From contig JBFEPE010000003.1 in NCBI GenBank assembly GCA_041550235.1, forward strand, positions 1,199 to 65,198: a DNA stretch of 64,000 nt, given 5' to 3'. A program made the translations under genes and the position numbers. Under the pieces are notes generated by a model, which made no database searches, had not been told where the DNA came from, and saw nothing but the letters and a program-made list of their open reading frames with translations. The stretch is from Minisyncoccia bacterium (lineage in GTDB: Bacteria; Patescibacteriota; Minisyncoccia; UBA6257; JAAZHW01). Positions 2,980-63,740 of the stretch are shown piece by piece; positions within the stretch are counted from its first letter, which is position 1, and every line of letters starts with the position of its first letter.

Positions 2980-3007
2980 TTTCGATTATTTTTTGTTTTT
3001 TCTATAT

Positions 3008-3113
3008 AAAAAATGGGGTATAATATATTAATATATTGAGTGATGGGATATATCCCCCCGCCTACGGCGGGGGGATATATGAATGCCTAATAAAAAATGG
3101 GGTATAATATATA
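3008..3113. repeat. GC hairpin (3050-3078, 'atatccccccgcctacggcggggggatat') flanked by a direct repeat 'aaaaaatggggtataatatat' (3008-3030 and 3091-3113)
   Basis: The direct repeat, which contains a TATAAT-like box, is duplicated on both sides of the hairpin, immediately upstream of xfp. Confidence 0.7.
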
Positions 3114-5472: not shown

Positions 5473-5530
5473 TTTGTGGATAATTGCTATTGATTTTTAA
5501 TTTTATTCCTGGTAAGATAAAAACACTATG

Positions 5531-5566
5531 AGCACCGGTTCTGCCTTTGGCAAGACCGGTTTTTTT
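5531..5566 (+). terminator. Rho-independent terminator after xfp
   Basis: 'caccggttctgcc tttg gcaagaccggt' hairpin followed by a T7 run. Confidence 0.65.
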
Positions 5567-5916
5567 ATTGTATAATCAAGGTAATGAAAATAGCGGTTTA
5601 TATTGATGGGAGTAATTTTTATAAATATCTCAAAGATAAAGAAATTTCCTTGCCAAAAGGAAAAAAGTTTAATTAAGCATTCTGATTTTAGTCGGCTCTT
5701 ATCAAGGGAGGATGTTTTTAATTTTTCAGAATGAGGTGGTAATATGATAAATGTATTCATAAAAAATGTAATAATTTATGTTTTGATTTTGATAATAATT
5801 TTTCAATTTTATTTAACCATGAGGTTAAAATTTATTATTAGTAAGTAAAAATAGATGAATGCTCTTTTTTGTCTTAAATGTGATTATGTGCTATTCTGAT
5901 AATAATCAGAAACAAT

Positions 5917-11193: not shown

Positions 11194-12279
11194 ATGGATA
11201 TATTATTATTTCTTATTTTAATAATTGGGATTGCCATATTGGTGGCGATGTTTTTAATTTGGAAAAAAATATCTTCACCTGAAAAAGACACAAAAAAAAA
11301 TAGCGAATCATTTCTATTGCTTCAAAATCAAATAAATCAAATTGTAAAAGCAATTGATGAAAAACTCGGAGAAAGCCGAAGAGAAATGACAAATGCAGTT
11401 CAAACCCAATTTAGCGAATCACAAAAATTGATAAAAAATGTTTTAGAGAGTAGCAGAGACATCACTGCAAAAGTTTCTCAAGTTCAAGAATCAAGCAAGC
11501 AAGTTTTTTCTTTAGCAGAACAACTTCAAAATTTAGAGAAGGTTTTGAAAAATCAAAAGCAGAGAGGAAATTTAGGTGAAATGGGCTTGGAATTAGTCTT
11601 ATCCAATATTTTATCGGCTGATACATATAAAATTCAATATCAATTTTCTGATGGCGATACAGTTGATGCAATAATAAAAACAAAGGAAGGAATAATTCCT
11701 GTTGATGCAAAATTTTCATTAGATAATTATCAAAGGGCGGCTGATGAAAAAGATGAGGCGAAAAAAGAAATCTTAGAAAAAGATTTTAAGAATGATTTAA
11801 AAAAGAGAATTGATGAGACGGCAAAATATATCAAACCAAAAGAGGGGACACTGCCTTTTGCTTTTATGTTTATTCCCGCCGAAGGAATTTATTATGATTT
11901 AATGGTAAATGAGGTGGGGTCATTGAAGTCAAATACAAGAAATTTGATTGATTATGCTTATAGGGATAAGAATGTGATAATTGTTTCGCCAACTACTTTT
12001 GCCGCCTATCTTCAATCGGTTCTTTATGGATTTCGTGCCTTTCAAATAGAGGAGCAGACCATTGAGATTAGAAAGAATGTTGATAATTTAAGAGTTCATA
12101 TATCAAAATATGAGGAATATATGAAGAAATTAGGGAATAATCTTTCGGCAACTGTTAATAGTTATAATTTTGCCGGCAAAGAATTTAAGAAAATAGATAA
12201 GGATATTTTAAAGATAAGCGGACAATCCGCCGGAGTAGAGCCAGTGCTAATTGATAAGCCCAGAAAAGAAGATGATTAG
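11194..12279 (+). CDS. rmuC: DNA recombination protein RmuC
   Basis: N-terminal TM, coiled-coil region, then 'FMFIPAEGIYYDL' and 'IIVSPTTFAAYLQSVLYGFRAFQIEEQ' typical of RmuC. Confidence 0.85.
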   Translation: MDILLFLILIIGIAILVAMFLIWKKISSPEKDTKKNSESFLLLQNQINQIVKAIDEKLGESRREMTNAVQTQFSESQKLIKNVLESSRDITAKVSQVQESSKQVFSLAEQLQNLEKVLKNQKQRGNLGEMGLELVLSNILSADTYKIQYQFSDGDTVDAIIKTKEGIIPVDAKFSLDNYQRAADEKDEAKKEILEKDFKNDLKKRIDETAKYIKPKEGTLPFAFMFIPAEGIYYDLMVNEVGSLKSNTRNLIDYAYRDKNVIIVSPTTFAAYLQSVLYGFRAFQIEEQTIEIRKNVDNLRVHISKYEEYMKKLGNNLSATVNSYNFAGKEFKKIDKDILKISGQSAGVEPVLIDKPRKEDD

Positions 12280-20588: not shown

Positions 20589-20598
20589 TAGAACATGC

Positions 20599-20751
20599 CT
20601 CTATACCCCCCCCGCCCTTGGCGGGGGGGGTATAGAGAAGGATTAATTTAAAATATCTATATGGCGGTTTGATTGGTTAAGTTTAATTAAAAATAGATAA
20701 AAATAATAAAATATGCCTGCATCTCTCCCCCGCCGAAGGCGGGGGAGAGAT
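20599..20751. repeat. Two GC palindromes (20599-20635 'ctctatacccccccgcccttggcgggggggtatagag'; 20721-20751 'atctctcccccgccgaaggcgggggagagat') separated by an AT-rich spacer
   Basis: Perfect inverted repeats. Confidence 0.8.
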
Positions 20752-20796
20752 ATACTAGTTTAATTAATAATAGATAAAAAAATAATAAACAAAAAT

Positions 20797-21321
20797 ATGG
20801 CAACAAGACATCTTTGTAGATCAATTATTTTACAATCCCTTTATGAATGGGACTTTTACAATAATTTTTATGCTCAGAAAAAAATGGGTGATGTTAATTT
20901 AATAGATGTTTTAGACAGGCATTTAGGTGATTGCGGAGAGATGATTGATGAACCAGACTTTGCCTACCGCATCGTTAAGAATTTAGTAGATCATTTAGAA
21001 GAGGTTGATGATTTGATAAAAAAGGCGGCTCCCACTTGGCCATTTGATCAAATAAATATTGTTGATAGGAATATTTTAAGATTAGGAATTTCAGAACTTG
21101 TTTTTGGTAATCCCGAGGAGGTACCATTTAAGGTAGCAGTCAATGAAGCAGTTGAGTTGGCAAAAACATTTGGAGGAGATTCATCCGCCCGATTTATAAA
21201 TGGAGTTTTAGGAACGATATATGACCAGTTAGCAGAGGCAAGACCTGAAGTAAAGAAGCAAGAGGTAGAATTTTTGGAAGAAAAGAAAAAGAGAAAAGAA
21301 GCAGAGAAAGATGACAAATAA
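20797..21321 (+). CDS. nusB: Transcription antitermination factor NusB
   Basis: '[19 protein letters not shown]', '[14 protein letters not shown]', '[24 protein letters not shown]'. Confidence 0.85.
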
Positions 21322-22085: not shown

Positions 22086-22230
22086 ATCACCCCCCCCCGC
22101 CTACGGCGGGGGGGGGTGATAGAGTGGTTGGTGTTGTAATAATTTTTGAATGATGGATAAATTGCTAATCACCCCCCGCCTACGGCGGGGGGGGTGATAG
22201 AGTGGTTGGTGTTGTAATAATTTTTGAATA
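22086..22230. repeat. Tandem ~65-bp direct repeat (two copies), each containing a 14-bp-stem GC hairpin plus 'gatagagtggttggtgttgtaataatttttgaat'
   Basis: Copy 1 at about 22086-22151 and copy 2 at about 22169-22230, 17 bp apart, directly upstream of the pilin-like gene. Confidence 0.8.
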
Positions 22231-22237
22231 ACAAAAA

Positions 22238-23845
22238 TTGCTTTATAGAATAATTATGTTTAGTTTGAATAAAAAATATATAAAAGGGGTAACACTATTA
22301 GAAACACTGATATATGTTGCTATTTTTGCTGTTGTCGCTGGTGGATTGATAGGAATCTTGTCAGGCACAATAGATGTTGTAAGCAAAGAAGATGCCATAA
22401 ACGAAGTTGATGAGAACTTAAGGCAGGCGATTTCCACAATAGGCAATAGAATAAGAAATACCGATATAATTCAAAGTGCAACAGGCACAACATTAGTTTT
22501 AAGAATGGCGACAACAAGTCCTGGTGGGTTTTCTACTACAACATTTTCTGTTTCCAACGAGATGTTATATTTAACAGAGGGGGATAATGATCCAGTCGCA
22601 GTTATTTCTGATAAGGTAAAAGTTGATAGTTTGGAATTTACAAAAATTTCAATGCCGGGGGCAAAGGGCGGAGTAAGAATAAATATGGTGCTGAGTTATA
22701 ATAGCGATAAGGCATCGCTTTCATTTAGTAAATCTATTCTTTCTACTATCAATAGAGCGGTTGCAATTACATTCAATGAGGATGTTCTGCCGGGAGTAGA
22801 TAACTCATACAATATTGGCTCGTCCGGTAATTTCAGATGGAGGGATGGATATTTTTCTGGTGGATTGAGTGTTGATGGTGGGGTAACATCATCCCAATTT
22901 TGTTTATCTGATGGTTGTCAGACATCATGGGCTGGATTAGGATTATGGACAGCAAATGGCGATGATATTTATTATAATACTGGCAATGTAGGCATTGGAA
23001 CAACAACTCCTGATTTTTTACTTCACTTAGAAAAGGCGACATCCAATCCTGCCATTGTATGGGAAAGAGGAGATGGGGCGACTGGATTTGTAAATTCTAC
23101 TGCCAGTAATGTGGGCCTTGGTTCTGTTTCCAATCACGAGATTAGATTTTTAGTTGGGGCAAGTCCAAAAATGGTTATTGATACGGATGGTAATCTCGGA
23201 ATTGGAACGACTACTCCCGCATCTTTATTGAATTTATATGGTTCAGGGGGTGGTGGTAGCGGAATTATTTTTGGAAATAGTTATGATGATTTTTCTGGAT
23301 ATTTTGTTAATAATGATGACGATAGTGATTTTAGATTAACTTATTTGGGGTCAGGAGGATCGGACATAACTATTCAGGCAGATGGGGATGTTATTTTGGG
23401 GGCGGGTGGCAATGTTGGTATTGGTGATACTACTCCCAGTGAAAAGTTGGATGTGGCAGGGAATATTGGTTTAACCGGAACGGTTATCCCTGATAATGCT
23501 TGTGGTATTACTGGGGGAGTTTTCATTTATGATGCGGGTGGTGTATCCAGTGGTTTAAATTTATCTTCTGTTTATGGATATTCAATGATTTGTCCAGGGA
23601 TTGTTACCGGCATTTCGGCTAGATGTCAAACAGTAGATGCCTCTAACCATGTTGCTTTTGAAGTAAAGAAAAATAATTCTTCTCAAGATTGTGATACATT
23701 AGAAGTAGATACGGCCTATATTAGCGAAATAACATCTGGATGCAGTGTGAGTTTTTCAGCCGGAGATGCTATTAATTGTGCCGCTAAAACTGTAACAGGC
23801 ACAGTATCAACATGTAATTGTTCAATTTCAGTAAGATTTGATTAG
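22238..23845 (+). CDS. Large type IV pilin-like protein with tail-fibre-like Gly-rich repeats
   Basis: N-terminal prepilin signal 'KG|VTLLETLIYVAIFAVVAGGL' with Glu at +5; three repeats of 'GN(V/L)GIG(T/D)TTP...L'; Gly/Ser/Thr-rich C-terminus. Confidence 0.6.
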   Translation: MLYRIIMFSLNKKYIKGVTLLETLIYVAIFAVVAGGLIGILSGTIDVVSKEDAINEVDENLRQAISTIGNRIRNTDIIQSATGTTLVLRMATTSPGGFSTTTFSVSNEMLYLTEGDNDPVAVISDKVKVDSLEFTKISMPGAKGGVRINMVLSYNSDKASLSFSKSILSTINRAVAITFNEDVLPGVDNSYNIGSSGNFRWRDGYFSGGLSVDGGVTSSQFCLSDGCQTSWAGLGLWTANGDDIYYNTGNVGIGTTTPDFLLHLEKATSNPAIVWERGDGATGFVNSTASNVGLGSVSNHEIRFLVGASPKMVIDTDGNLGIGTTTPASLLNLYGSGGGGSGIIFGNSYDDFSGYFVNNDDDSDFRLTYLGSGGSDITIQADGDVILGAGGNVGIGDTTPSEKLDVAGNIGLTGTVIPDNACGITGGVFIYDAGGVSSGLNLSSVYGYSMICPGIVTGISARCQTVDASNHVAFEVKKNNSSQDCDTLEVDTAYISEITSGCSVSFSAGDAINCAAKTVTGTVSTCNCSISVRFD

Positions 23846-27067: not shown

Positions 27068-27487
27068 ATGATTGAATTTTCTAAAGAAAAATTGAATAGT
27101 ATTGCCGAGGAATATCAATTAGCAGATATATACTTTTTTGGTTCTCAAATAACCGGATTAACTCATCCCGAAAGTGATTTTGATGTAGCAGTTCGCTTTA
27201 GAAATGGCTTGCCTGAGAAAGAAAAAAGAGGAAAAATATATGCCAATCTTTTCGCTGATTTAAGCGGCACCTTGAAAATGTCTAATTTGGATTTAGTGTT
27301 CATAGAAGAAGCACCTTTGCATATTCAATTTCAAATTATCAATAAGGGTAAATTAGTTTATTCTCATCACAGAATAAATTCTTGTGATTTTCAAGAAAAA
27401 ATAGTAAATTATTATCGTGATTATAAGTATTTCATTGATGAGTTTTTTAAAGGCGTTTTAGAATCTTCCGTGAAAAATAAGAAATAA
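27068..27487 (+). CDS. Minimal nucleotidyltransferase (MNT-type antitoxin)
   Basis: 'FFGSQITGLTHPESDFDVAV' is the Pol-beta-type NTase motif. Confidence 0.75.
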   Translation: MIEFSKEKLNSIAEEYQLADIYFFGSQITGLTHPESDFDVAVRFRNGLPEKEKRGKIYANLFADLSGTLKMSNLDLVFIEEAPLHIQFQIINKGKLVYSHHRINSCDFQEKIVNYYRDYKYFIDEFFKGVLESSVKNKK

Positions 27488-27505
27488 TAAATAATTTTAT
27501 TTAAT

Positions 27506-27946
27506 ATGTTTAATGATTTTGACAAAGAAAAAATAATAGCAAGAATTGATGATATTAAAAATTCTCATTCAGAACTCAAAAGACTTTCAGGTATTAGCAT
27601 TGATGACTTTAGAAAAAACAAAGAAAATTATCCTTTGGCTATTTATTATTTAAGAATAGCATTAGAATCAGTGCTAACTATTGCCACTCATGTTCTTTCT
27701 CGATTGCCCTCTAATGGGAAAGAAAAAGATTATACTCAATTAATCTTATCATTGGCTGATTATAAGGTTATTCCTTATGAATTTGCTCAAAAAATAAAGG
27801 GGATGGCTGGATATAGAAATAGATTAGTTCATCTCTACTGGAAAATATCGGATGAGGAAGTATTGTCTATTATTAAGGAAAATATAAATGATTTTGAGGA
27901 ATTTATTGAATATGTAAATGAATTTTTAAGAAAGAACAGCAACTAA
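27506..27946 (+). CDS. HEPN-domain protein (HepT/DUF86-type toxin)
   Basis: 'GYRNRLVHLYW' is the Rx4-6H HEPN motif; adjacent to the NTase. Confidence 0.75.
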   Translation: MFNDFDKEKIIARIDDIKNSHSELKRLSGISIDDFRKNKENYPLAIYYLRIALESVLTIATHVLSRLPSNGKEKDYTQLILSLADYKVIPYEFAQKIKGMAGYRNRLVHLYWKISDEEVLSIIKENINDFEEFIEYVNEFLRKNSN

Positions 27947-32905: not shown

Positions 32906-32938
32906 ATCCAATCTCAAAAAGTTAGGATGTTTTTTAAT
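32906..32938. terminator. Bidirectional terminator shared by rpsP (+) and rnpB (-)
   Basis: 'aaaaaacatccaatctcaaaaagttaggatgtttttt': hairpin with an A-run upstream and a T-run downstream. Confidence 0.65.
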
Positions 32939-33372
32939 TCAACAATAATAAGCCGGATTCTGTATCAACAATCATTTATCTATGAATAGTGTCGCCACTA
33001 TTCTATAGCGATCCACCTTTTCGCTTATAAAAAGCGATTTGATCTTGCACCGGATAGGGCTTGCCAGCAATGGCTTATCACTAAGCCCGCATAAGAGTAG
33101 CAATTATGAAAATCACATCTCTTATCTTTTCACCTTTCTCCAGCCCCACTTTTATTTCTAAAAGTGGGGCTGGGTAGTATTGTCTCTGTGGCGCTTTCCC
33201 TATCCAGCACCACTTTTATTTCTAAAAGTGGTGCTGGGCGGTTGGTGTTACCAACTATCCATTTTCCAATATTTATATTTAATAATAAAATAATAAATAT
33301 TTTGGGTGTCCGGACTTTCCTCTTCTTATGTTGCCGAAGCAATATAAGAAGCGATTGCTTTTGCCGAATTGC
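32936..33372 (-). ncRNA. rnpB: RNase P RNA (bacterial type)
   Basis: Minus-strand sense carries the P4 motif 'GAGGAAAGUCCGGACACC' (plus strand 33303-33320), the 3' P4 motif 'ACAGAAUCCGGCUUA' (plus strand 32948-32962), a P3 hairpin, P1/P2 pairing, and two duplicated hairpins with a compensatory C-G to A-U change. Confidence 0.75.
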
Positions 33373-33469
33373 CCATATCTTAACATAATTTAATAATAAG
33401 TCAATTTTTGATTTTTGAAAGTAAAATCAAAAATTTACTATATTTCGCCTATGATTTTAAAAGACAAGA

Positions 33470-33498: not shown

Positions 33499-33636
33499 TG
33501 AATAAATTTATCACTTTTATTCTCTCTCTTGTTACCTCCGCCTGTGGCAGACATTCTGCCCGCGAAGTATTTTATATCCGCCTCTGGCGGAGCGGAGGTC
33601 TAAAAGTCACGGCAAACATGATGAATTATGTTTGAG

Positions 33637-33697
33637 ATTCCCCGCCTAAGGCGGGCAGGCTGCCGGAGTATTATCCGCCTCTGGCGGACAGGAATGA
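33637..33697 (+). repeat. ~61-bp composite two-hairpin repeat, direct copy
   Basis: 'gattccccgcctaaggcgggcaggctgccggagtattatccgcctctggcggacaggaatga'. Confidence 0.8.
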
Positions 33698-33699
33698 CA

Positions 33700-33960
33700 A
33701 AAAAGAGGGTGGAATAGCATGTTCTTATCTTTCCACACTTTTGAAATGATGATGATTTACCTCCCCCGCCCCGAAGGGGCGGGGGAGGATATTCTTATCT
33801 TTCCACAATTTTGGACAATACTATCAATCCTCCTCCGCCTGTGGCGGAGGAGGATCTTTCCACACTTTTAGATAATAATACAACTATGCCTCGCCCTGCG
33901 AAGCAGGGCAAGGCATATCATCAAATTATCATCTTTCCACACCTTTAAATAAAATAAATA
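33700..33960. repeat. Tandem array of four modules, each a distinct GC hairpin followed by a conserved 'tctttccacac(t)ttt' box
   Basis: Boxes at 33731, 33800, 33858 and 33934; hairpins at 33760-33788, 33829-33853 and 33887-33915; the same box also occurs at 16886 and 17051. Confidence 0.7.
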
Positions 33961-33978
33961 ACAATTATAATATAGATA

Positions 33979-34809
33979 ATGATAAACATTTTCAAAAATA
34001 AGAAAGCCACTTCATTTATAATTCTCTCAATTGCATTGATAATAGCAATTATTTTGATATCTAATGGTGGGGAAGAGGTGGTGATTGGAATAAATAGCGA
34101 TATAAAAAACGACCAAGAAAATAAAGCAAGCGGTTTCCAATTAGAAAGAGATGGAGAAAAATTAGGAATAATTGGAGTGAACGATTTGTCTCAATACTTA
34201 ACTACTCAATCAAAAAAAAGAAACCTCACAAGAGACTTGGCCGATAAATTATCGCTTGGTTTTGTTGAGGCAAATGAATTTAATGAAGACCCATCGCAAG
34301 GTGTTTTCACTCCTGACGGTTATAGCATAATATCCACCTCATTAGAAGACTACAGCAATGAGTTTGGTTTGAAAAAAGACTTCATTACAATAAAAGATTT
34401 AAATATTGGGGGGGATAATTCTCAAGAAGCAATTCTTTCATATTATACTCAATATAGAGATACCATAAGTGAAGAAGTTGATAAGTTGGATATTTTAAAT
34501 AGATTAAATAAATTCAATGAGAGCAAGAATTTAAGTTATATTTTTGATATAATAGATGGGTATGATTCATTAATTTCAAAAATGAAAAAAATAAAAGTTC
34601 CAAGTGATTTTATAGAACTTCATTTGGAAAATATAAATTTATATATTTCTCAAAAATCTATTTTTGGCTCATTGGCTCAAATCAATGATGACCCATTAAG
34701 GTCTCTCACTGCAATAAATTTATTAGAAGAAACAGAAGATAAGTTGAGTGATTTGGGATTGGAATTTGCTTCTGCTCTTGAAAAAAATGGATTTAAAATT
34801 ATTTATTAA
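33979..34809 (+). CDS. Hypothetical membrane-anchored protein (276 aa); first gene of the T4SS-like cluster
   Basis: N-terminal TM helix; no motif. Confidence 0.45.
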   Translation: MINIFKNKKATSFIILSIALIIAIILISNGGEEVVIGINSDIKNDQENKASGFQLERDGEKLGIIGVNDLSQYLTTQSKKRNLTRDLADKLSLGFVEANEFNEDPSQGVFTPDGYSIISTSLEDYSNEFGLKKDFITIKDLNIGGDNSQEAILSYYTQYRDTISEEVDKLDILNRLNKFNESKNLSYIFDIIDGYDSLISKMKKIKVPSDFIELHLENINLYISQKSIFGSLAQINDDPLRSLTAINLLEETEDKLSDLGLEFASALEKNGFKIIY

Positions 34810-41872: not shown

Positions 41873-42268
41873 ATGCCAACATTCCAAGTGCCACAATTTA
41901 TTGATATAGAGGATAAGATTATCGGGCCTCTCTCATTGAGACAATTTATAATTTTAGCAATAACTGGGGGCTTGCTATTTGCTTTATTTAAAATTTTTCA
42001 ATTTTGGTTGTTCTTTATTTTTGGAGGAATAATTGCGGCATTAGGAATGTCGTTGGCATTTGTGAAGATAAATGGGCAAAGATTTGATAAGGTTGCATTG
42101 AATGCTTTGAGATATTTTATCTCTCCGCGACTCTATGTTTGGAGAAGACCAGAAAAAAGTAAGCAATTATCAGTTGCTCCAAAGATAGAAGTAAAGAAAA
42201 AGGTTGAGGAGCAGAAGAGAATGACTCTTGAGCAATTAGAGGAATTTGCCAAAAAATTGGATAAATAG
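41873..42268 (+). CDS. VirB3/PrgI-like small two-TM protein
   Basis: 'FQVPQFIDIEDKIIGPLSLRQFIILAITGGLLF' resembles the PrgI-family N-terminal motif; lies directly upstream of VirB4-related ORFs. Confidence 0.4.
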   Translation: MPTFQVPQFIDIEDKIIGPLSLRQFIILAITGGLLFALFKIFQFWLFFIFGGIIAALGMSLAFVKINGQRFDKVALNALRYFISPRLYVWRRPEKSKQLSVAPKIEVKKKVEEQKRMTLEQLEEFAKKLDK

Positions 42269-42276
42269 CAACAAAT

Positions 42277-42936
42277 ATGCCAGCAGAAATATCAACAGAA
42301 CAATTTGTAAGTATAGAAACAATAAAGGACGATTCCGTCGTATTAAAGGACGGCTCATTAAGAGCCGTTATAATGGTTTCTGGAATAAATTTTGATTTGA
42401 AATCAGAAGACGAGCAAAATTTAATTATTGGCTCATTTCAAGGTCTTTTAAATAGATTAGATTTTTCAGTTCAATTCATTACTCATTCAAGAAAGCTAAA
42501 TATTGATAGTTATCTAAGAGATATGGGTAAGAGAAGCGAGAAAGAAGAAAATCCATTATTAAAAAATCAAACAACAGAATATATAAGTTTCATAAGCTCG
42601 CTTGTGAATGTTGCCAATGTGATGTCAAAAAGATTTTATGTCGTTGTTCCCTATAGTGTTTTGGCAGTTGAGGCAGAAGAGACAATCTCAAAATTTATTG
42701 GGTTTTTGCCTTTTGGAAAGGGAAAGTCTAACAATGAGGCAAATAAGAAAAAGGAGAATTTTGAGTCACAAAAAATTCAGTTAAAGCATAGGGTAGATTC
42801 TGTAATGGCTGGATTGAGATCAACCGGAGTGAGGAGTATTAGATTGGAGACAGAAGATTTATTGGAGCTTTATTATAATCTTTATAATCCGGAAAAGAAG
42901 GAAAAGAAGATCCCAAAAATATTTGAGGATATTTAA
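42277..42936 (+). CDS. VirB4/TrbE N-terminal-domain-like protein (219 aa), apparently the detached N-domain of the VirB4 ATPase
   Basis: 'SIETIKDDSVVLKDGSLRAVIMVSGINFDLKSEDEQ' resembles the VirB4/TraC N-terminal region; together with the 604-aa ORF it totals 823 aa, the length of a full VirB4. Confidence 0.45.
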   Translation: MPAEISTEQFVSIETIKDDSVVLKDGSLRAVIMVSGINFDLKSEDEQNLIIGSFQGLLNRLDFSVQFITHSRKLNIDSYLRDMGKRSEKEENPLLKNQTTEYISFISSLVNVANVMSKRFYVVVPYSVLAVEAEETISKFIGFLPFGKGKSNNEANKKKENFESQKIQLKHRVDSVMAGLRSTGVRSIRLETEDLLELYYNLYNPEKKEKKIPKIFEDI

Positions 42937-42940
42937 TAAA

Positions 42941-42976
42941 AAGGGGCAGGGTGTTTTTTCACCCGCCCTTTTCGGC
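42941..42976. terminator. Bidirectional terminator (gggcagggtg...cacccgccc flanked by A- and T-runs)
   Basis: 'aaaaggggcagggtgttttttcacccgcccttttcgg'. Confidence 0.6.
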
Positions 42977-42981
42977 AATAA

Positions 42982-43302
42982 CTAAAATTTTACCACGGCC
43001 GCAAGTACTGATTTCCCGTTATTAAAATCTTCGGGAGTTCCCCAATTGAGCCAGTTTCGAAAATTAATTTCTACAAGCCCTTTAGTAGGGGTAGGAATAC
43101 TATAATCCGTTTTTGGTTTGCAATTCAAGGTGCTACCGTTATTACTCTTGAGCAGAATGTTTTTTACAAATATCCCATCTCGGAATGACACTTCTTTAAT
43201 AGTCCAACCAAGATGAATAACCTCGTCTGAGTCCACAAATTCAATAGTCATTTCCTTGTTTATTCTAGCATTTGAATAAAGATCTCTTTTTTTTCTAGTC
43301 AT
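42982..43302 (-). CDS. Hypothetical protein (106 aa) inserted between the two VirB4 parts
   Basis: Strong RBS 'aataggaggaataaata' before the ATG; divergent from the promoter module. Confidence 0.45.
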   Translation of the reverse strand: MTRKKRDLYSNARINKEMTIEFVDSDEVIHLGWTIKEVSFRDGIFVKNILLKSNNGSTLNCKPKTDYSIPTPTKGLVEINFRNWLNWGTPEDFNNGKSVLAAVVKF

Positions 43303-43388
43303 TATTTATTCCTCCTATTTTTTTAATTTTTAACATCTTAACGGAAACTCAACCATCAAATTTCCCGCCAACATTATATCACAAATAA

Positions 43389-43445
43389 ATATATTTGTCA
43401 ATAGTGGGGGTTGGGTTTGACTTATAATAGTATTAATGAACATCC
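43389..43445 (+). promoter_or_regulatory. Conserved promoter-like element, copy 1 ('tgtcaatagtgggggttgggtttgacttataatag')
   Basis: Near-identical to 46727-46793; contains TATAAT at 43423-43428. Confidence 0.55.
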
Positions 43446-43579
43446 TGTCTTCGTCGACCCGCCTTCGCTAAAGCTACGGCAGGGCAGGGGACTTCGGCGG
43501 GCAAAGGAGAAACACCCCGTCCCGCCAAGAGACGAGCCACCCCTCTATAAGAGGGGAATAAGAAATAAGATAAAAAAAT
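43446..43579 (+). promoter_or_regulatory. Structured GC-rich 5' leader of virB4 with the motif 'ggagaaacaccccgtccc-hairpin-ccacccctctataagagggg'
   Basis: The motif recurs at 46826-46880 and 47383-47448. Confidence 0.5.
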
Positions 43580-45394
43580 ATGGCGATAGCAGATTTCTTA
43601 CCATTTTCAAAAAAAGGAGAAGACCAGCCGGTGGCTATTCCCGAAGTATATAAATTTGGACCGCAAACAGCGAGGGATCTTTTGATTCCCCCAGCATTAG
43701 AAGTAGAATCAAATTTTTTAAAAATTGGAAATCTTTTTGTGAAAACATTATTTATCATTGCTTATCCAAGATATCTTTCTACGGGATGGTTTTCGCCGGT
43801 TATAAATATAGACCAAACCGTTGATGTATCAATATTTGTTCATCCAGTTGATACCGGCTCTGCATTGAAAAAATTAAGAAAAAAGACCGCTCAAGTTCAA
43901 GCACAATTAGCAGAAAGACAAGAGAAGGGATTTGTGAGAGACCCCGCATTGGATATGGCATATCAAAACCTGGAAAATCTAAGAGACTCATTGCAACAAG
44001 CAACAGAAAAACTTTTCAATGTCGGTGTATACATTACAATTTATGCTGATACAATGGAAGAATTAAGCGATGTGGAAGGCAAGGTTGTCTCATTTTTGGA
44101 GGGCAGAATGATTTATGCAAAGCCCGCTCTTTTTCAACAAGCACCGGGATTAGAATCAAGTTTTCCATTGGGGTTAGATAGATTGAAAGTTCATAGTGTT
44201 TTAAATTCATCACCATTATCAAGTATGTTTCCGTTTGTTTCCGTTGATTTAACATCAGATTCTGGAATACTTTTTGGGTTAAATAGACATAATAATAGTT
44301 TAATAATTTTTGATAGATTTTCTTTGGAAAATGGAAATATGGTTATATTTGCAAAGTCAGGTAGCGGAAAATCATATTTCACAAAATTAGAAATTTTAAG
44401 GTCATTAATGATAGATACAGATGTTTTGGTTATTGACCCTGAAAATGAATATAGATATCTTTGTGATACCGTTGGCGGTTCATATATTGATATCTCCCTC
44501 ACTTCTCCTCACAATATCAATCCATTTGATTTGCCCCCTCTTATGCCCGACGAAAGTCCAGCCGAAGCATTGAAGTCTAATGTTTTAAACCTCACAAGTT
44601 TGTTGAGAATAATGCTCGGTGATTTATCATCTGAAGAAGCAGGAATATTGGATAGGGCAATCAGCGAAACTTATTCATCAAGAGACATTACCCCTGAAAG
44701 TGATTTTTCTATTATCACTCCGCCCTTAATGGAAGACTTACAAACCGTTTTGGAAAGTATGGAAGGGGGGCTTAATCTTTCTGAGAGATTATATAAATTC
44801 ACAAAAGGAAGTTTTGGTGGATTTATAAATCGCCCTACTAATATTGATATTGTAAATCGATTAGTTGTTTTTGGAATAAGAAACTTAGAAGATGAACTTC
44901 GTCCAATAGCAATGTTTATTATTCTTAATTATATTTGGAACCTTATTCGTTCTAATGTGAAGAAAAGAATATTGATAATTGATGAGGCATGGTGGATGAT
45001 GAAGTTTCCTGCGGGAGCAGATTTCTTATTTGGATTAGTGAAAAGATGCCGTAAATATTTTTTGGGAGTTACTACCATCACTCAAGATGTTGATGATTTT
45101 ATTCGCTCGCCACAAGGAATGCCTATTATCACGAACTCGGCACTTCAAATGTTGATGAAGCAATCTACTGCTTCTATTGATAATGTTGCTGAAACATTCA
45201 GTTTAACTAATTCTGAAAAGCAATTATTGGTTGAGGCGGATATTGGAGAGGGGATATTTTTTGCTGGTCTCAAGCATGCTGCTATTAAGGTCATTGCTTC
45301 TTATGCTGAGGATCAAATAATCACAACAAACCCCGCTCAATTATTAGAGATAGCAGAAGCAAAGAGAGAATTTGGCGAATCCCAAGGATTTTAA
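43580..45394 (+). CDS. virB4: VirB4/TrbE/CagE-family T4SS ATPase (middle and ATPase domains)
   Basis: Walker A 'AKSGSGKSYF', Walker B 'RILIIDEAWWMM', N-terminal 'YPRYLSTGWFSPV' region typical of VirB4. Confidence 0.8.
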   Translation: MAIADFLPFSKKGEDQPVAIPEVYKFGPQTARDLLIPPALEVESNFLKIGNLFVKTLFIIAYPRYLSTGWFSPVINIDQTVDVSIFVHPVDTGSALKKLRKKTAQVQAQLAERQEKGFVRDPALDMAYQNLENLRDSLQQATEKLFNVGVYITIYADTMEELSDVEGKVVSFLEGRMIYAKPALFQQAPGLESSFPLGLDRLKVHSVLNSSPLSSMFPFVSVDLTSDSGILFGLNRHNNSLIIFDRFSLENGNMVIFAKSGSGKSYFTKLEILRSLMIDTDVLVIDPENEYRYLCDTVGGSYIDISLTSPHNINPFDLPPLMPDESPAEALKSNVLNLTSLLRIMLGDLSSEEAGILDRAISETYSSRDITPESDFSIITPPLMEDLQTVLESMEGGLNLSERLYKFTKGSFGGFINRPTNIDIVNRLVVFGIRNLEDELRPIAMFIILNYIWNLIRSNVKKRILIIDEAWWMMKFPAGADFLFGLVKRCRKYFLGVTTITQDVDDFIRSPQGMPIITNSALQMLMKQSTASIDNVAETFSLTNSEKQLLVEADIGEGIFFAGLKHAAIKVIASYAEDQIITTNPAQLLEIAEAKREFGESQGF

Positions 45395-46793: not shown

Positions 46794-47490
46794 CCTTCGT
46801 CGAGACTTCGGCGGGCGAAGGAGAAAACACCCCGTCCCGCCTGAGGCGGACCACCCTTCTATTAGAGGGTGGCACATCCGCCTTTGGCGGAGAATTATAA
46901 GACAAGATTAACAACTCCCAAAGAAAATCAAAATTTCGAATATATAGAGAGTAAATAGAAACAAATTAAGGAATGGGGAGCGATGATCTATATATTCAAA
47001 TGTTTGAGTTTTGCCGATTTTCAAATAGAGGCAAAACGAGTTCTTTCCAGCCAGAGGCGGATCCGCCTATGGCGGAGAATTGATCATCGCGGAGACAAGA
47101 AATAAATTGCAAAGCAATTTCTTTCTTGGCGGGAATGGATATAATTTGTCTATTTACGAACGAAATAGAGAAATTTTAGATTTTTTGGGGAGATAGAGAT
47201 TCCCCGCCGAAGGCGGGCAGGCCGCCGGAGTATTATCCGCCTCTGGCGGACGGGAATGAAAAGAAAGGACGGGCATGACAAGAAAAAAGTGGGGATAATC
47301 TAAATTGTAGCAATAATATAATGGTGGTATAATATAATCAAAGAAAATATCTCCCCGCTTTCGCGGGGATGACGACAAAGAAGGGGAGAAACACCCCGTC
47401 CCAGCCCCTGCGGACAGGGGCTGGACCACCCCTCTATAAGAGGGGAATTATACTCGCCTTCGTTGAAACTTCGGCGAGGCGAAGAAAAAT
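46794..47490 (+). other. ~700-nt non-coding GC-hairpin-dense region; candidate long structured leader or ncRNA
   Basis: No credible ORF; ORF-track hits here are Pro/Arg-rich translations of hairpins; contains the leader motif twice, the 61-bp repeat and the 'aaaatcaaaatttcgaatat' box. Confidence 0.45.
47198..47258 (+). repeat. ~61-bp composite two-hairpin repeat, direct copy
   Basis: 'gattccccgccgaaggcgggcaggccgccggagtattatccgcctctggcggacgggaatga'. Confidence 0.8.
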
Positions 47491-50633: not shown

Positions 50634-50699
50634 AAAATACCCTCACGATTGCAAGGGGATATTTTTCTTAAAGAGTTATATTAAATGTTAAAAAAATTA

Positions 50700-51182
50700 T
50701 TATTCTTCTTTCCACCATTCTTCAATTGGATCTTCTTTTTTGAAATCTAATAATAAATCTTTAAGTAATGAATAGGCAGTAGTATATACAGCAATATGAA
50801 ATACATCATTTTCATTTTTGAGTTTATCTAACAATCTTAATATAACATCATAAGGCTCAGTTCCACTCATTTCATTAGTATCAGTGTCAATTATTTCTCC
50901 CGCTTCTCCCCTTATTTGAAAAAAGTAATTTTTTAATGGTCCTTTTTTAGGTTTCATTCTCCATTCCGCCAGCACTGTTTTTGATGGGTATGGTGGGAGT
51001 ATTTTTATAACTCTCACAAATCTTTTTTTTCTTTCCCTTGATAATTCTCTCTTCACTATTTCCAAAGCATCTGTCGGTGATCTAGCATTGATAATTTGTT
51101 CACTAGTGATACTTGTGTTATTATCTTTGACTATTTTATAAAAAACACGAAAAGCAATAAATACTTTTTCTACTTTTGGCAT
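50700..51182 (-). CDS. Hypothetical protein (160 aa)
   Basis: ORF only. Confidence 0.4.
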   Translation of the reverse strand: MPKVEKVFIAFRVFYKIVKDNNTSITSEQIINARSPTDALEIVKRELSRERKKRFVRVIKILPPYPSKTVLAEWRMKPKKGPLKNYFFQIRGEAGEIIDTDTNEMSGTEPYDVILRLLDKLKNENDVFHIAVYTTAYSLLKDLLLDFKKEDPIEEWWKEE

Positions 51183-51396
51183 TTTTTCCTCCTAATTTTT
51201 ATGGCCCCTTTTTATTTTTAAAAGATTTGTTTCGGTGGCAAAATCTAATCTCAACTTATCACAAAATAAAATCATGTCAAATTTTGTTAATTTAAAGATA
51301 TCGCTTATTCGGATTTTTGACGAAAAGATAGAAGGTGAGAATTAGGAATGGAATTTGATTTATATATAGTTCCTGTAAAAATATAAAACAATGGCA

Positions 51397-51430: not shown

Positions 51431-51958
51431 TAAAAATAATTTAAAGATGTGATTGTTTATCTTGTAAGAAAAGGAGGGAAAAATAGGAATTTTGCCCTCT
51501 TATATTATCATTTGAGTCTCCAAATGCGAATATGGATTTTTAATTTAGGCAATTAAATGATGATATGTTATAATGCAGATATGGATAAATACACAGCAGG
51601 GAAAAAAGAGGCTATTGATAATAAAAAACTCTCGAAATATGAGTATTTTTTGCCATCGCTTATAAATAAGGGCTTTGACATTAAAAATGATAAAATATTT
51701 ATCTATCTTGAAAATGCGGCAAGACTTTTGGGCGAATTAAATTCTTATGGAGATTTGTAATACCGCCAATAGATTGGTGTCTGATTTTGTTAATCTTGGT
51801 ATTTTGATTGAGAGGACTGGCTTTTCAAGAAATAGACTTTTTGGAATGGATAGTTATATCAAATTATTTAAAGATAAATAACCCTGAACTACGAAATATC
51901 TCCTTTTTTTGACATTTTTTTGTTTTGTGTTATTATGTTTTCAGAAAAGGAGGTAAAA

Positions 51959-52699
51959 ATGAATAATGTTAAAGAAATCTTAAAAAAAGGAAGAAAAATA
52001 TTGTTGTTAAGACTGAGGGGTTTAAATAACCCCTATCATAACAGAGAGCATATTAAGAACGTAGTTAAATACTTGAAGATTCTTTTGAAAAATTTAAAGA
52101 GTGATTTTTTGACCAAGGAAGAAATAATGTTGCTAATTGAGTGTGCATGGAGGCACGATGATGGACATTGCGGGAATACATATCGCCAAGCCGTTTTTTC
52201 TAATGAAGGAATTAGCAATGAGGAATATGCCGTCGATCTAATGGAGCGGGATCTCAAAGGAGAATTGGATAAAAAATATGTTGATTTTTTGAAAAGACAT
52301 ATTTTGGCTACTTCTTTTGGTCAAGATAATTTAGAGAAATTGCCTAATGAAAAGTGGTTTAGATCGTATAAACCCGAATCAAACAGCGAGAAATTATTAG
52401 TTCTTGCCGATGTTATGGATTTTACAAGGCGATGGACATATTGGATCAATCAAGGAGTCAAATTTTCAAAAGAATCATCTCGAAAATTTAATGGTTTGGA
52501 TGATTTCCTGAAAATGGAAATAGGATTCATTGCCTATGTTAAAAAAATAATTGGTGATGCAGAATACCTGCTTTCTGATAACTTTCTTAAAAAATTAAGA
52601 AAAAAATTGGAAAAGAAAAAGATTAAAATTGAAGAGTTGATGAATAAAAATACTTCGAACAGAAATCATCTTGCCGACAGACTGAAATTGAATAAATAA
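51959..52699 (+). CDS. Putative HD-domain-like phosphohydrolase
   Basis: RBS 'aaaggaggtaaaa'; 'YHNREHIKNV' and 'AWRHDDGH' are His/Asp metal-binding-like motifs; tentative. Confidence 0.35.
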   Translation: MNNVKEILKKGRKILLLRLRGLNNPYHNREHIKNVVKYLKILLKNLKSDFLTKEEIMLLIECAWRHDDGHCGNTYRQAVFSNEGISNEEYAVDLMERDLKGELDKKYVDFLKRHILATSFGQDNLEKLPNEKWFRSYKPESNSEKLLVLADVMDFTRRWTYWINQGVKFSKESSRKFNGLDDFLKMEIGFIAYVKKIIGDAEYLLSDNFLKKLRKKLEKKKIKIEELMNKNTSNRNHLADRLKLNK

Positions 52700-53193
52700 T
52701 ATTTTTAATCAATTCGCCTGCTAGAAATGGGGGCGGATTTTTTTGTTATAAGTTTGATTATGTGTTATTCTGATATTAATCCAAAAAATAATAATATTTA
52801 TTTTATTTCTGAAAAATTTGGGAGATCTTATTATGCAATGAGATGTGTCGCAAGCAAAAATGGCAAATTTAAATGCATTACGGGGTTTATAATAGCACCG
52901 AGATTGAGGTCTAAATATATCAATACATTGGGGGATTATATTTGTTAATAAAAAAGAAGTTGTTATTAGTCCTACAACTTCCCAAAAAGGACAGGCACAA
53001 ATATACCATAAGTATATTCCCTGTTGTCAATTGAGCAAAAAGCTCAATGACTCAGCAACATATAGTCGCAAACATATTATACCACATATTTTTGAAAATT
53101 GTGGATAAATAATAAAAAATGGCATAAAATAAGGATTAATCTGGATTTTTTATCTCTTGACACATTTTTTTAAATTTAATTTATAATAAAATT

Positions 53194-54657: not shown

Positions 54658-54685
54658 AAAAAGAGCATTAAAATCAAAACCAAAA

Positions 54686-54869
54686 AAAATCAAAATTTCG
54701 AATATCTAGAGAGTAAATAGAAACAGAGATATAATAATATCCCTCCCCCGCCTACGGCGGGGGAGGGATTATCCCGGCTTATAAACAAAGTAAAGAAATT
54801 TTAGATTTTTTTTGAAGCCATGTTATAAAAAGACATAAATTAGCCTCCCCCCGCCTACGGCGGGGGGAG
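54686..54869. repeat. Mosaic repeat region: 'aaaatcaaaatttcgaatatctagagagtaaatagaaaca' box (also at 46921-46962; partial at 2509-2535) plus two GC hairpins (54739-54769, 54845-54869)
   Basis: Shared ~40-nt box, and the 'ataataatatccc+hairpin' junction is shared with 2530-2570. Confidence 0.7.
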
Positions 54870-54950
54870 AGAAACATGCTTCTTGACAGATTATTTTAAT
54901 TATGATATAATTGCTAGGTCGAAAAATTATGAGTTATTTTATATAAAATT

Positions 54951-56813: not shown

Positions 56814-57173
56814 ATGTCAAGTATTAAAAAAATAATCTTATTATCAATAATAATTATTATGGGGTGGGGGAGTGTAGCAACTGCCTCTGTTTCTGATTGG
56901 GAAAATGTATTAGATGAGGATAATTTCAAATCTATTTTGCCAACAGATATAAAAAACTCATTAGAGAAATTTGAGAATTGGCTATCAGAAAAAACAAAAT
57001 TTATAGATGAGCAAATAAATATAAAGGATAGATTAGATGATATTAAAGATAAAATTAATTTAAATAATTTAGATATAAATTTAAAGGATTTTTTTAAGAA
57101 GATATTTGATAAGTTGGTTTTGCTATCTGGTGGCATTCTTGAATTTATAAGAAAGATATTTCCAAATTTATGA
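56814..57173 (+). CDS. Small secreted hypothetical protein (119 aa)
   Basis: Signal peptide; its 3' end is duplicated downstream. Confidence 0.4.
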   Translation: MSSIKKIILLSIIIIMGWGSVATASVSDWENVLDEDNFKSILPTDIKNSLEKFENWLSEKTKFIDEQINIKDRLDDIKDKINLNNLDINLKDFFKKIFDKLVLLSGGILEFIRKIFPNL

Positions 57174-57271
57174 AATAGTCCATAGTTATTAAGATACCCC
57201 CTCCGCCTACGGCGGAGGGGGTATCAGGAAATTATAAATTTATAAGAAAAATATTCCCAAATTTATGAATA
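57144..57271. repeat. GC hairpin (57193-57225) flanked by a ~34-bp direct duplication ('tttataagaaaGatatttccaaatttatgaaata' and 'tttataagaaaAatattcccaaatttatgaataaa')
   Basis: The first copy is the end of the upstream gene, stop included; the second copy provides the galU start codon. Confidence 0.75.
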
Positions 57272-58149: not shown

Positions 58150-58440
58150 GCGGGGAAGAGATGATTTCCGCTATATATTAAATAAAAAAGCATGCCTGTC
58201 GCAAAACATACATTGTGCGACAGATACAATGCCATTCCCCCTATATTAGATTATCCACATTGACAATGGATTTGTTGTGAGTATAATAAAGACATCCTTA
58301 GAAAAGATCGCGCTTCGCGGTCTTTTCCTTTTTTTCAAATCTATTATTTCTGAATTTTAAGACGGATATTCTATCTTGACGAGGGTGGATTTCGCCTCTT
58401 TGAATAATAATTCATTTATATTATTTCAATAATCAGATAA

Positions 58441-58480
58441 AAAATGAAGCCGAAAAACAATTCGGTTTCATTTTTTTATT
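58441..58480. terminator. Bidirectional terminator 'aaaaatgaagccgaaaaacaattcggtttcattttttt'
   Basis: Hairpin with flanking A- and T-runs. Confidence 0.6.
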
Positions 58481-58496
58481 AATTCTTAACACATGG

Positions 58497-58784
58497 TTAC
58501 TGATTGTAATATGCCTTTAGTAATTTCTCACTTCCAGCAGTTGCTCCCGTTACAAATCCTCGAATATATTTACCATTTTTAGATCCCATGCGATATGACC
58601 ACTGGTGGTTGTTAGAGTCAATTTTATCAGCTCGGAATGTTCGCACATAAACACGTTCGTCCCATGATTTAAAAACAACAGACAGGGTCCCTTTGTTTAA
58701 ATCGACTTTCCAAACATCCAGCACCTCTTTGACTGCGACAAAAGACATTGCTACCCTCTTTTGTTTTTTAGTATTACTAATCAA
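58497..58784 (-). CDS. Hypothetical protein (95 aa)
   Basis: ORF only. Confidence 0.4.
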   Translation of the reverse strand: MISNTKKQKRVAMSFVAVKEVLDVWKVDLNKGTLSVVFKSWDERVYVRTFRADKIDSNNHQWSYRMGSKNGKYIRGFVTGATAGSEKLLKAYYNQ

Positions 58785-62816: not shown

Positions 62817-63740
62817 CTATTTTCGTCGTCTATTATGAAAGGCGGAATGAACCTCCTTCAACTCCTTATTTGTAAGATGAGTATAAACTTGAGTGGTATT
62901 TAAATTTGAATGACCAAGCATCATTTGAACAGACCTTAAATCCGCCCCATTTTGTAAAAGGTCGGTCGCAAACATATGGCGAAGAGTATGCGGAGTCACC
63001 TTCCTCACAATTCCCGCTTTCGTAGCATAATGCTTAATCAACCTCTGAACAAGGCGAGGACTTATTCCCCCCAAAACCTTTGGATTATTTGCCTTTGAAT
63101 AACTCACAAATAATGAATCTTCTAAGTCCCCTCTTTTATCAAGATATTTCTTTATCAATTCTCTTGCGGTTTTTGAAAGAAAAACAACTCTTATTTTGCC
63201 ACCTTTTCCAAAAACACTGAACTCCCCCGTTTTTAGATTTACATTTTCTTTCTTCAATGAGCAAAGTTCTGATATTCTCATTCCTGTTGAAAATATAGTT
63301 TCTAATATCGCTTTATCTCTAATAGAAATAATATCATTGCCATCAGGGGCTGATAATAATCTTTCCAAATCAGAATAACTTATCATTTCAATTTCTCTTT
63401 CGGGCAATTTACTTAGCTCTATATTATCTGGCGACAATGATTCTTGCCCTATCTTAACTAAATATCTCAAAAATCCTCTTAATGCAATAATATAATAGTT
63501 TTGAGTTGCCTTCTTTAATCCTCCATCATTAATCCTATTTAAATAAAGACGATATTTTCTTATTATTTCTGCATCAATTTGTTTAACTGAAATATCATCT
63601 TTCTTTTTATCAAAACTTTTCTCTAAAAAATCAACCAATTTTTTTAAATATTGATTATAATTTTCTATTGTTTTTCTGCTTCTCCCCTTTTCTATTTCCA
63701 AATATTCTAAATATTGATTTATCGCCTTCATCAAATTCAT
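62817..63740 (-). CDS. Tyrosine site-specific recombinase XerC/XerD family
   Basis: 'HTLRHMFATDLLQNGADLRSVQMMLGHSNLNTTQVYTHL' C-terminal catalytic box (R..H..Y), N-terminal core-binding domain. Confidence 0.85.
   Translation of the reverse strand: MNLMKAINQYLEYLEIEKGRSRKTIENYNQYLKKLVDFLEKSFDKKKDDISVKQIDAEIIRKYRLYLNRINDGGLKKATQNYYIIALRGFLRYLVKIGQESLSPDNIELSKLPEREIEMISYSDLERLLSAPDGNDIISIRDKAILETIFSTGMRISELCSLKKENVNLKTGEFSVFGKGGKIRVVFLSKTARELIKKYLDKRGDLEDSLFVSYSKANNPKVLGGISPRLVQRLIKHYATKAGIVRKVTPHTLRHMFATDLLQNGADLRSVQMMLGHSNLNTTQVYTHLTNKELKEVHSAFHNRRRK

Follow-up and report, generated by a model that had tools for sequence, protein, structure and literature searches.

The 64-kb window analysed here (64,000 nt of contig JBFEPE010000003.1, from the Minisyncoccia bacterium assembly GCA_041550235.1) has a GC content of about 32% and carries a gene set typical of Patescibacteria, including xfp, secA, rpmF, nusB, gatB, galU, type IV pilus ATPases and aminoacyl-tRNA synthetases. 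Dispersed among these genes are about 28 perfect GC-rich hairpins with 3-nt loops, 24 of which have stems of 8–18 bp, and all of them lie in non-coding or probably non-coding DNA. At some sites such hairpins are accompanied by long direct repeats of the local sequence, as an earlier sequence-based reading of the window (the original prediction) had reported for three places. The observation is confirmed and now extends to five sites, the additional ones lying at 20595–20799 and 33722–33947.

All the hairpins belong to one family of small, GC-rich palindromic modules that are non-autonomous. Each consists of a pyrimidine-rich 5' arm ending in GCC (in a few cases GAC or CGC), a 3-nt loop and a complementary G-rich arm. 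The outer stem bases are AT-rich and different at each site, and the shared part is an internal core, (C-run)GCC-NNN-GGC(G-run), of which a 15-nt form has 20 matches in the window against 0 expected. Predicted folding energies as single-stranded DNA range from −14 to −22 kcal/mol, in a genome that is otherwise too AT-rich for stable short duplexes. A donor copy of each insert was sought in the window and in all fetched loci (about 120 kb), and only the shared core matched. A metagenome scan with the hairpin core CCCCGCCTACGGCGGGG returned, among the matches listed, mostly unrelated contigs of higher GC content with one match each; few of the listed matches were low-GC contigs, and none of those showed the repeat–hairpin pattern. 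The hexamer ATGCCT precedes five hairpins and forms the outer stem of hairpin H3 (see below) and of a structure at 20210. It was considered as an element terminus and dropped, with 46 occurrences in the window against 36 expected and no overall enrichment, and is treated here as a subfamily feature or microhomology. As to loops, the eight hairpins of the TAC type all read TAC on the + strand, never GTA (3057, 16463, 20153, 22096, 22175, 54747, 54850 and 57202), and all eight lie on one replichore among + strand genes; TTC and GAA loops occur in both orientations.

The association between hairpins and repeats was assessed by aligning the 90 nt left of each hairpin to the 90 nt right of it and comparing the result with shuffled sequence. 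Seven hairpins gave alignments with z = 7–23. A flank score of at least 37 was reached by 6 of 28 hairpins and by 4 of 2517 random positions (0.16%), a more than 100-fold excess, and three of those four random positions fall on another duplicated hairpin, inside the RNase P gene. The direct repeats range from about 17 to about 58 nt (33, 23–27, ~32, 50–57 and 17–31 nt) and contain neighbouring gene ends, promoter boxes and start codons. All repeat-bearing hairpins precede a + strand gene start by 38–190 nt, with the downstream repeat copy adjoining or including a −10-like box or an ATG. No flanking repeat is present at about 21 of the 28 hairpins, several of which follow gene ends.

Orthologous loci from related strains were reached via homologue and cluster searches, exact look-ups of the window's GalU and of the protein encoded upstream of it having given no match. 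The closest genome match is the Candidatus Paceibacteria metagenome-assembled genome (MAG) GCA_041559835.1 (contig prefix JBFFCO; loci L001, L032, L033, L156, L158 and L160), whose DNA is about 95% identical over L001. A second relative, from run SRR15144438, contributed L028, L029, L031 and L155, which are 93–97% identical to the window, and L030 is the window's own genome assembled again from SRR29257546. The spacers of these ~95% identical strains differ almost wholly by gain, loss, nesting and duplication of GC-rich hairpins.

At galU, a 33-nt repeat occurs at 57142–57174 and again at 57237–57269 (start-to-start spacing 95 nt), with 31 of 33 positions identical, in good agreement with the ~34 bp originally claimed. 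The 62-nt segment between the copies (57175–57236) holds a perfect hairpin at 57193–57225 (GATACCCCCTCCGCC TAC GGCGGAGGGGGTATC) with a 15-bp stem, a 3-nt loop and a DNA fold of −19.6 kcal/mol (z −6.8). Copy 1 comprises the last 10 codons and the TGA stop (57171–57173) of the open reading frame (ORF) 56814–57173, and copy 2 ends in the galU ATG at 57265, so that the earlier description of a gene end with its stop followed by a second copy supplying the start codon also stands. The SRR15144438 strain (L029), about 3–4% diverged and independently assembled, has the same structure with the same two mismatches. An assembly artefact is practically ruled out by this recurrence and by the presence of the array at 33.7 kb, described below, in both L030 and L031. 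In the JBFFCO MAG (L001), the upstream-gene end and the left hairpin arm are common with the window as far as GGCGGA (57216); from the hairpin core onward, other hairpin modules form a cluster of 160 nt, the 33-nt sequence does not occur a second time, and ATGAA alone is present on both sides. The upstream-gene end in L001 reads attccc, which window copy 2 retains, indicating that copy 2 was copied from the ancestral gene end and that copy 1 was altered later. The stop and start codons would have overlapped as ATGA, an overlap that the downstream copy would restore.

At xfp, the repeat (ATAAAAAATGGGGTATAATATAT) contains a −10-like box and occurs at 3006–3028 and at 3090–3112, the second copy lying directly upstream of the xfp start (ATG 3115/3118). 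The copies are identical at 23 of 23 positions with a spacing of 84 nt, and the 61-nt segment between them (3029–3089) contains a hairpin at 3048–3080; the GGTATAAT box lies within the repeat, which bears out the claim that a promoter-like box is duplicated here. The SRR15144438 strain (L155) has a single repeat copy and no hairpin. The window is 84 nt longer at this site, and the 84 nt absent from L155 equal the 61-nt segment plus one repeat copy. Extension of the repeat toward the start codon gives a marginal alignment (p = 0.016), and the sequence right of the hairpin core matches local sequence with p = 0.14. The GGTATAAT boxes are enriched in the window (9 found vs 2.7 expected), usually stand 6–30 nt before start codons, and occur on the + strand at 3017, 3101, 22061, 40291, 40797, 47326 and 55491, among others; their position suggests very short leaders. 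Homology between strains often ends 5–7 nt past such a box, and downstream of it each strain has its own hairpin element, with three versions at 22061 and two at about 28630.

Two further sites take the form of tandem units. At 22.1 kb, unit 1 (22086–22167) consists of a hairpin (22086–22120), a 32-nt flank (22121–22151) and a further 16 nt, and unit 2 (22168–22245) of a hairpin (22168–22198), the flank (22199–22229) and a tail leading to a pilin-like gene (ATG 22256). Hairpin and flank are thus tandemly duplicated, as originally described: the flanks are 100% identical, and the sole difference between the units is the length of the C and G runs, which are shorter in the unit 2 hairpin. A hairpin-free orthologue of this site was sought in the related strains and not found; both other strains carry different hairpin elements there, and their contigs end at this point. 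Between rpmF and nusB, the window carries a pair of hairpins together with two diverged copies, 57 and 50 nt long, of almost the entire spacer, both ending in an ATG. Unit 1 (20595–20712) comprises ATGCCT, hairpin hp1 (20599–20637) and spacer copy A (20659–20715); unit 2 (20713–20799) comprises ATGCCT, hairpin hp2 (20721–20751) and spacer copy B (20750–20799), which ends in the nusB ATG. The units (118 and 84 nt) align over hairpin and spacer with a score of 59 against a shuffle mean of 25.4 (standard deviation 4.2). Both begin with ATGCCT, and a nusB ATG follows each. The SRR15144438 strain (L028) has a 72-nt spacer in a single copy and no hairpin, and the JBFFCO MAG carries GCGGGGGAGAGATAT, that is, the right arm of hp2 and the spacer start, directly after the rpmF stop, followed by a single spacer. 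Because GCGGGGGAGAGATAT is present at the same junction in that MAG, the hairpin–spacer junction is older than the duplication. Tandem duplication of hairpin and spacer together is the best reading of the window state, and the L028 allele, which has no hairpin, is probably a loss. Three stem differences between hp1 and hp2 are compensated on both arms (C·G to T·A twice, A·T to C·G once), which implies selection on the stem or arm-to-arm copying.

The fifth site is an array at 33722–33947, upstream of the gene at 33979, in which four copies of a local 17–22-nt sequence (ATCTTTCCACAC.TTT.) alternate with three hairpins, all different. The repeats are R1 (33722–33743), R2 (33792–33813), R3 (33854–33870) and R4 (33931–33947), interleaved with the hairpins H1 (33760–33788), H2 (33827–33855) and H3 (33886–33916). 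At the H3 site the JBFFCO MAG (L032) has H2, then one copy of ATCTTTCCACACCTTTAAATAAAATAAATAAC, then the gene, whereas the window and the SRR15144438 strain have an extra 77 nt made up of a second ATCTTTCCACACCTTTAAATAAAATAAATAAC copy and H3. In L031, hairpin modules of 22 and 24 nt are nested in the loops of H2 and H3, and the H1 loop reads GAA in the window and TTC in L032, an inverted loop.

Other differences between the strains involve the same modules. A 97-nt segment bounded by the 17-nt repeat TATCCGCCTCTGGCGGA (33575–33671) is absent from L031 and present in the more distant MAG (L032), and its absence is therefore a repeat-mediated deletion. A strain-specific 172-nt segment with two hairpins (54700–54870; hairpins at 54739–54769 and 54845–54869) has no flanking direct repeat and is represented in L029 by 8 nt. 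Hairpin content differs at orthologous positions across the three strains, nested and chimeric hairpins occur, and homology breaks inside the CCGCC-NNN-GGCGG core both between L001 and the window at 57216 and at L028:360–375. A dispersed AT-rich repeat, aaaatcaaaatttcgaatatNtagagagtaaatagaaac, adjoins hairpins at about 2490–2530, 46920–46963 and 54685–54725; its first 14–18 nt are also present in the hairpin-free L029 allele at 54.7 kb, and it is a possible homology anchor for the 172-nt segment.

The comparison with empty orthologous sites that the original prediction had called for thus returned a single copy without the hairpin at xfp (L155), at H3 (L032) and at rpmF–nusB (L028). Since the hairpin-free alleles carry one copy, the flanking repeats did not pre-exist without the hairpins, although the empty sites may themselves be revertants given that repeat-mediated deletion occurs. 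The linkage of hairpin and duplication holds, and so does the claim that a gene end, a promoter-like box and regions around start codons have been remodelled. The part of the prediction that is not established is insertion by a mechanism that duplicates long target sequence, which is weakened by the variable repeat lengths, the repeat-free 172-nt segment, the tandem units and a half hairpin. The other option offered there, local tandem duplication promoted by the hairpins, is a better fit than target duplication of the transposition type.

We tentatively favour, at somewhat short of even odds, the reading that the repeats arise by replication slippage or template switching at hairpins resembling repetitive extragenic palindromic (REP) sequences or GC clusters. 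It is improbable that the long repeats beside them were made as target-site duplications through cutting by a transposase. A fixed staggered cut is disfavoured because repeat lengths vary and because the 172-nt difference, which lacks a repeat, replaces 8 nt. A nascent strand stalled or displaced at a hairpin would re-pair upstream, perhaps after copying a hairpin module from a different template; the pairing would be nucleated by short stretches of homology, in many cases the CCGCC/GGCGG core. Between 17 and 58 nt of local sequence would then be copied again. In the product, either the hairpin and its flank would be duplicated in tandem, or a new hairpin would have a copy of the local sequence on each side. 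Reverse slippage between the copies would remove the hairpin and one copy. Selection would keep those products whose downstream copy restores a promoter box, a start codon or an overlapping stop/start, and it is probably selection that decides which products are seen. What we infer here is slippage or template switching as the mechanism, the direction in which some events ran, and the filtering by selection. We propose that one process covers the variable lengths, the outcomes with no repeat or with a small deletion, the chimeric, nested and half hairpins, and the changes on both arms.

The separate steps have precedents. In Escherichia coli, Trinh and Sinden reportedly found that palindromes stimulate deletion and duplication by strand slippage between the direct repeats on either side of them, and quasipalindrome template switching is said to have been described by Ripley and by Lovett. 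Defects in flap processing (yeast rad27, E. coli polA) lead to duplications of 5–100 bp. One-step formation of perfect hairpins by template switching is described in a further report (PMC10710096).

Several points weigh against slippage or template switching. The xfp and H3 hairpins are new to their sites, and no donor with the same outer stem is present in the ~120 kb searched, so that an ectopic template switch has to be assumed as the hairpin source. The junction microhomologies are short, AT-rich and statistically weak, as in the two xfp comparisons given above (p = 0.016 and p = 0.14), and there is no outgroup by which to polarise the xfp event. Left junctions repeatedly fall just after a start codon or −10 box, which could reflect a targeted mechanism. 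The common orientation of the eight TAC loops is not predicted by random template switching, though these hairpins share one replichore and lie among + strand genes. Finally, the sequence covered is a fraction of the genome, and a trans-acting enzyme may be encoded elsewhere.

Alternatively, the hairpins may be true mobile elements, minimal palindromic units resembling REP sequences or miniature inverted-repeat transposable elements (MITEs), moved by a trans-acting transposase or integrase that makes wide, variable staggered cuts, with gap repair duplicating 17–58 nt; in a variant, a Cas1-type integrase would duplicate a repeat-sized stretch. Single-copy, hairpin-free alleles at xfp and H3 with a site-new hairpin between the copies are what such elements would leave, and the three different hairpins amid one local repeat at 33722–33947 are as serial insertion would give. 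The xfp hairpin and a hairpin at 33469 share ATATCCCCCCGCCTnCGGCGGGGGGATAT plus TGAAT, which suggests copying of a whole unit including the outer stem, and a separate MITE-like family with 12-nt inverted termini means that transposition machinery may exist. Long variable repeats are also produced by the insertion sequences (IS) IS1549 and IS1634, for which no mechanism has been proposed (PMC2266710). Nevertheless, we consider mobile elements unlikely. No transposase, integrase of the required kind, reverse transcriptase, Cas or Nop-domain protein was detected among the ~40 window ORFs (Pfam) or in the gene tables of the related contigs. The elements have no conserved ends and their outer stems are site-unique, one insertion-type difference lacks a repeat, at two sites the hairpin itself is part of a simple tandem duplication, and a half-hairpin allele and core-broken chimeras are not products of transposition. 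Less probable still, in our estimate, is an undescribed class of minimal palindromic mobile DNA in Patescibacteria, with a dedicated integration that duplicates ~17–60 nt of target, preferably just downstream of promoters or start codons, and so restores the promoter or gene start that is interrupted, the arms being kept perfectly complementary by active arm-to-arm copying.

Hairpin and repeat could instead result from two unrelated steps, the hairpin arriving without duplication and an independent small tandem duplication of a promoter or start region being retained by selection where a hairpin had cut a gene off from its promoter, ribosome-loading region or start codon. The abundance of hairpins without repeats, several of them after gene ends, agrees with this, as does the placement of every repeat-bearing hairpin 38–190 nt upstream of a + strand start with the downstream copy at a −10-like box or ATG. 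At galU, however, a hairpin arriving first would part the ATG from its gene if the codons overlapped as ATGA, leaving the gene inactive until the second event. Hairpins 28668, 40236, 48698 and 54845 lie 42–82 nt upstream of gene starts yet have no duplication, and an independent supply of duplications is not visible, short tandem duplications being otherwise nearly absent from the non-coding DNA of the window; we regard two separate steps as doubtful. It is very improbable that the repeats are functional duplicated sites (operator or promoter pairs), chance or low-complexity matches, or assembly artefacts without any link to hairpins. The genome is AT-rich, some repeat extensions are statistically weak, and a 12-nt palindrome in L156 (TCAATATATTGA, see below) could be a protein-binding site. 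Against this stand the z values of 7–23 over shuffles and the more than 100-fold excess over control positions, the fact that galU copy 1 is coding sequence, the recurrence of the structure in independent assemblies of diverged strains, and the existence of single-copy alleles.

Among known systems, the REP sequences and bacterial interspersed mosaic elements (BIMEs; the REPIN-RAYT systems) resemble the window hairpins in being short (20–40 nt), GC-rich, extragenic palindromes in many copies, often in mosaic clusters, located after gene ends, between genes and at rearrangement break-points, with protection of mRNA ends as a shared likely role. REP sequences were reportedly found at duplication join-points by Shyamala et al. 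in 1990. REPs are defined by a conserved tetranucleotide, GTAG or CGTC, on one side of the palindrome (PMC3733652), and this head is absent from all inspected window hairpins. The window hairpins also differ from REPs in their perfect stems, whose AT-rich outer parts are specific to each site, and in that about one in five is bracketed by 17–58-nt duplications of unique local sequence, a property that has not been described for REPs. No RAYT gene was seen among the ~40 window ORFs (Pfam) or in the gene tables of related contigs, a search covering ~64 kb of the genome.

The GC clusters of yeast mitochondria and other organelle hairpin elements are likewise GC palindromes in the AT-rich spacers of a small genome. 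The yeast clusters share with the window hairpins a fast presence/absence turnover in close strains, merging, shuffling and nesting, and no known dedicated enzyme (PMC4478555). They are flanked by repeats of 2–3 nt (AG, ACT) (PMC4478555), whereas the repeats described here are 17–58 nt long, contain functional gene-proximal sequence and lie in a bacterial chromosome; yeast families also consist of many identical copies, whereas the window hairpins are almost all unique outside the core. IS1634 and IS1549 generate long and variable direct repeats of 8–514 bp without a mechanistic model (PMC2266710), a length and variability that the window repeats share. Those elements, however, are 1.5–2 kb long and have a DDE transposase and defined ends, whereas the window insert is 30–60 nt, non-coding and without conserved termini, and no IS1634-family DDE transposase was found in the 64-kb window.

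Hairpin-stimulated slippage and template switching, as in rad27/polA flap duplications or in microhomology-mediated break-induced replication (MMBIR) and fork stalling and template switching (FoSTeS), predict every kind of change observed here, with tandem duplications of tens of bases by stable hairpins as well as repeat-bounded hairpin deletions, both-arm changes, loop inversions, GC-homology chimeras and variable junctions. These processes are known mainly from reporter assays and disease alleles rather than from genome-wide shaping of natural bacterial promoters and gene ends, and the copying of a new hairpin from elsewhere is our assumption.

Transposition of the MITE or IS type predicts features that differ from those seen: the duplication length is not fixed, one strain-specific hairpin segment has no repeat, there are no conserved terminal inverted repeats, the edge sequence varies from site to site, and the search revealed neither a donor nor a master copy. 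Integration of CRISPR spacers, off-target events included, also places a short insert between 23–35-nt copies and yields serial arrays such as the one at 33722–33947. Activity of CRISPR/Cas1–Cas2 was nonetheless dismissed, as the repeats vary in length and are local sequences that change with the site, the inserts are members of one hairpin family and not foreign spacers, and no Cas domains were found among the ~40 window ORFs. TIGR-Tas arrays have stem-loops with two 8–12-nt spacers, box C/D motifs and a Nop-domain Tas gene nearby (PMC12045711); the window loops are 3 nt and no Nop-domain protein was found in the window. Intrinsic terminators were set aside on account of the missing T tail on the + strand after hairpins 3048, 20721, 22086, 22168 and 57193. 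In the terminator scan, the only + strand match was an unrelated hairpin at 2941–2971, and hp1 scored on the − strand only. That canonical terminator follows a small ORF (2732–2920) and has the stem cccccgaact..agttcggggg in the window against cgcccc..ggggcg in L155:522–540. The window version is 6 nt longer on both arms, a symmetric difference that arose in one step. No description of such hairpins in Patescibacteria was found in the literature searched, which is not proof of novelty.

The genomes of Patescibacteria (the Candidate Phyla Radiation, CPR) are tiny, carry hardly any spare DNA and contain few mobile elements that can be recognised. If slippage or template switching is at work, it would provide a simple, enzyme-free rewiring of promoters, 5' leaders, stop/start overlaps and gene ends in reduced genomes, and a natural counterpart to the palindrome instability known mostly from reporter assays. 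Should the hairpins instead integrate by a dedicated mechanism that makes long, variable target duplications, this would bear on the unexplained repeats of IS1634 and IS1549. In practical terms, the hairpins break short-read assemblies, several related contigs ending in hairpins, and they create tandem promoters and short spurious ORFs that annotation pipelines are prone to misread.

Larger composite repeats built from the same modules also occur. A MITE-like family of ~125 nt with 12-nt inverted termini (TTGTCATTCCTG / CAGGAATGACAA) is composed of small CCGCC-NNN-GGCGG hairpins and ATAATACTCCGG linkers, with copies in the window at 8464–~8591, ~33575–33700 (reverse complement) and ~47150–47262 (reverse complement), and in the relatives at L028:3–132 and L158:4147–4250. 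At 48.7 kb the JBFFCO strain carries a MITE-like copy and the window a simple hairpin. A second composite multi-hairpin module, aacaccccgtcccgcc-NNN-ggcggaccaccc..tctattagaggg..gaattataagac, is present at several loci in all three strains (window 46815–46900, 47383–47452 and 43507–43559; L001:2171–2228; L028:2108–2138; L160:6745–6800), and contigs of related assemblies often terminate in it.

Upstream of rpsB in the JBFFCO strain (L156:1741–1878), a hairpin at 1797–1829 lies between two copies of a ~20-nt sequence that has the 12-nt palindrome TCAATATATTGA at its centre. The structure is a weak additional case or else a protein-binding site that has been duplicated, and it was left out of the case count on account of the repeated palindrome. 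Tandem 36-nt hairpin copies (TCCAGCCCCACTTTTATTTCTAAAAGTGGGGCTGGG; 33139–33174 and 33203–33238) are 94% identical and 64 nt apart, and are found in L031 too. They sit within the bacterial RNase P RNA gene (32932–33370, − strand; Rfam RF00010, 143.9 bits) and may represent hairpin duplication within a structured RNA gene. RNase P was the only match in an Rfam scan of the window, and no tRNA genes were found in the window.

Larger strain-specific segments of 0.25–1.6 kb, some with small ORFs, separate the window from the SRR15144438 strain (window 5441–5862, 50637–51313 and 51545–53137; L029:6073–6326; L031:1622–2444), among them ~380 nt between xfp and secA and ~800 nt between ruvC and rpsP in the SRR15144438 strain. 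The window also encodes a nucleotidyltransferase/HepT (MNT-HEPN) toxin–antitoxin-like pair at 27068–27946, and PrgI-like and VirB4/TraG-like genes at 41873–45394 that point to type IV secretion-like genes. An RmuC homologue is located at 11194–12279; this family has been implicated in restricting inversion events at short inverted repeats. At ~58200–58500, the GC skew changes sign at a cumulative maximum and gene orientation switches from + to −. This region looks like the replication terminus, and a XerC/XerD-like tyrosine recombinase gene (62817–63740, − strand) lies 4 kb from the skew switch.

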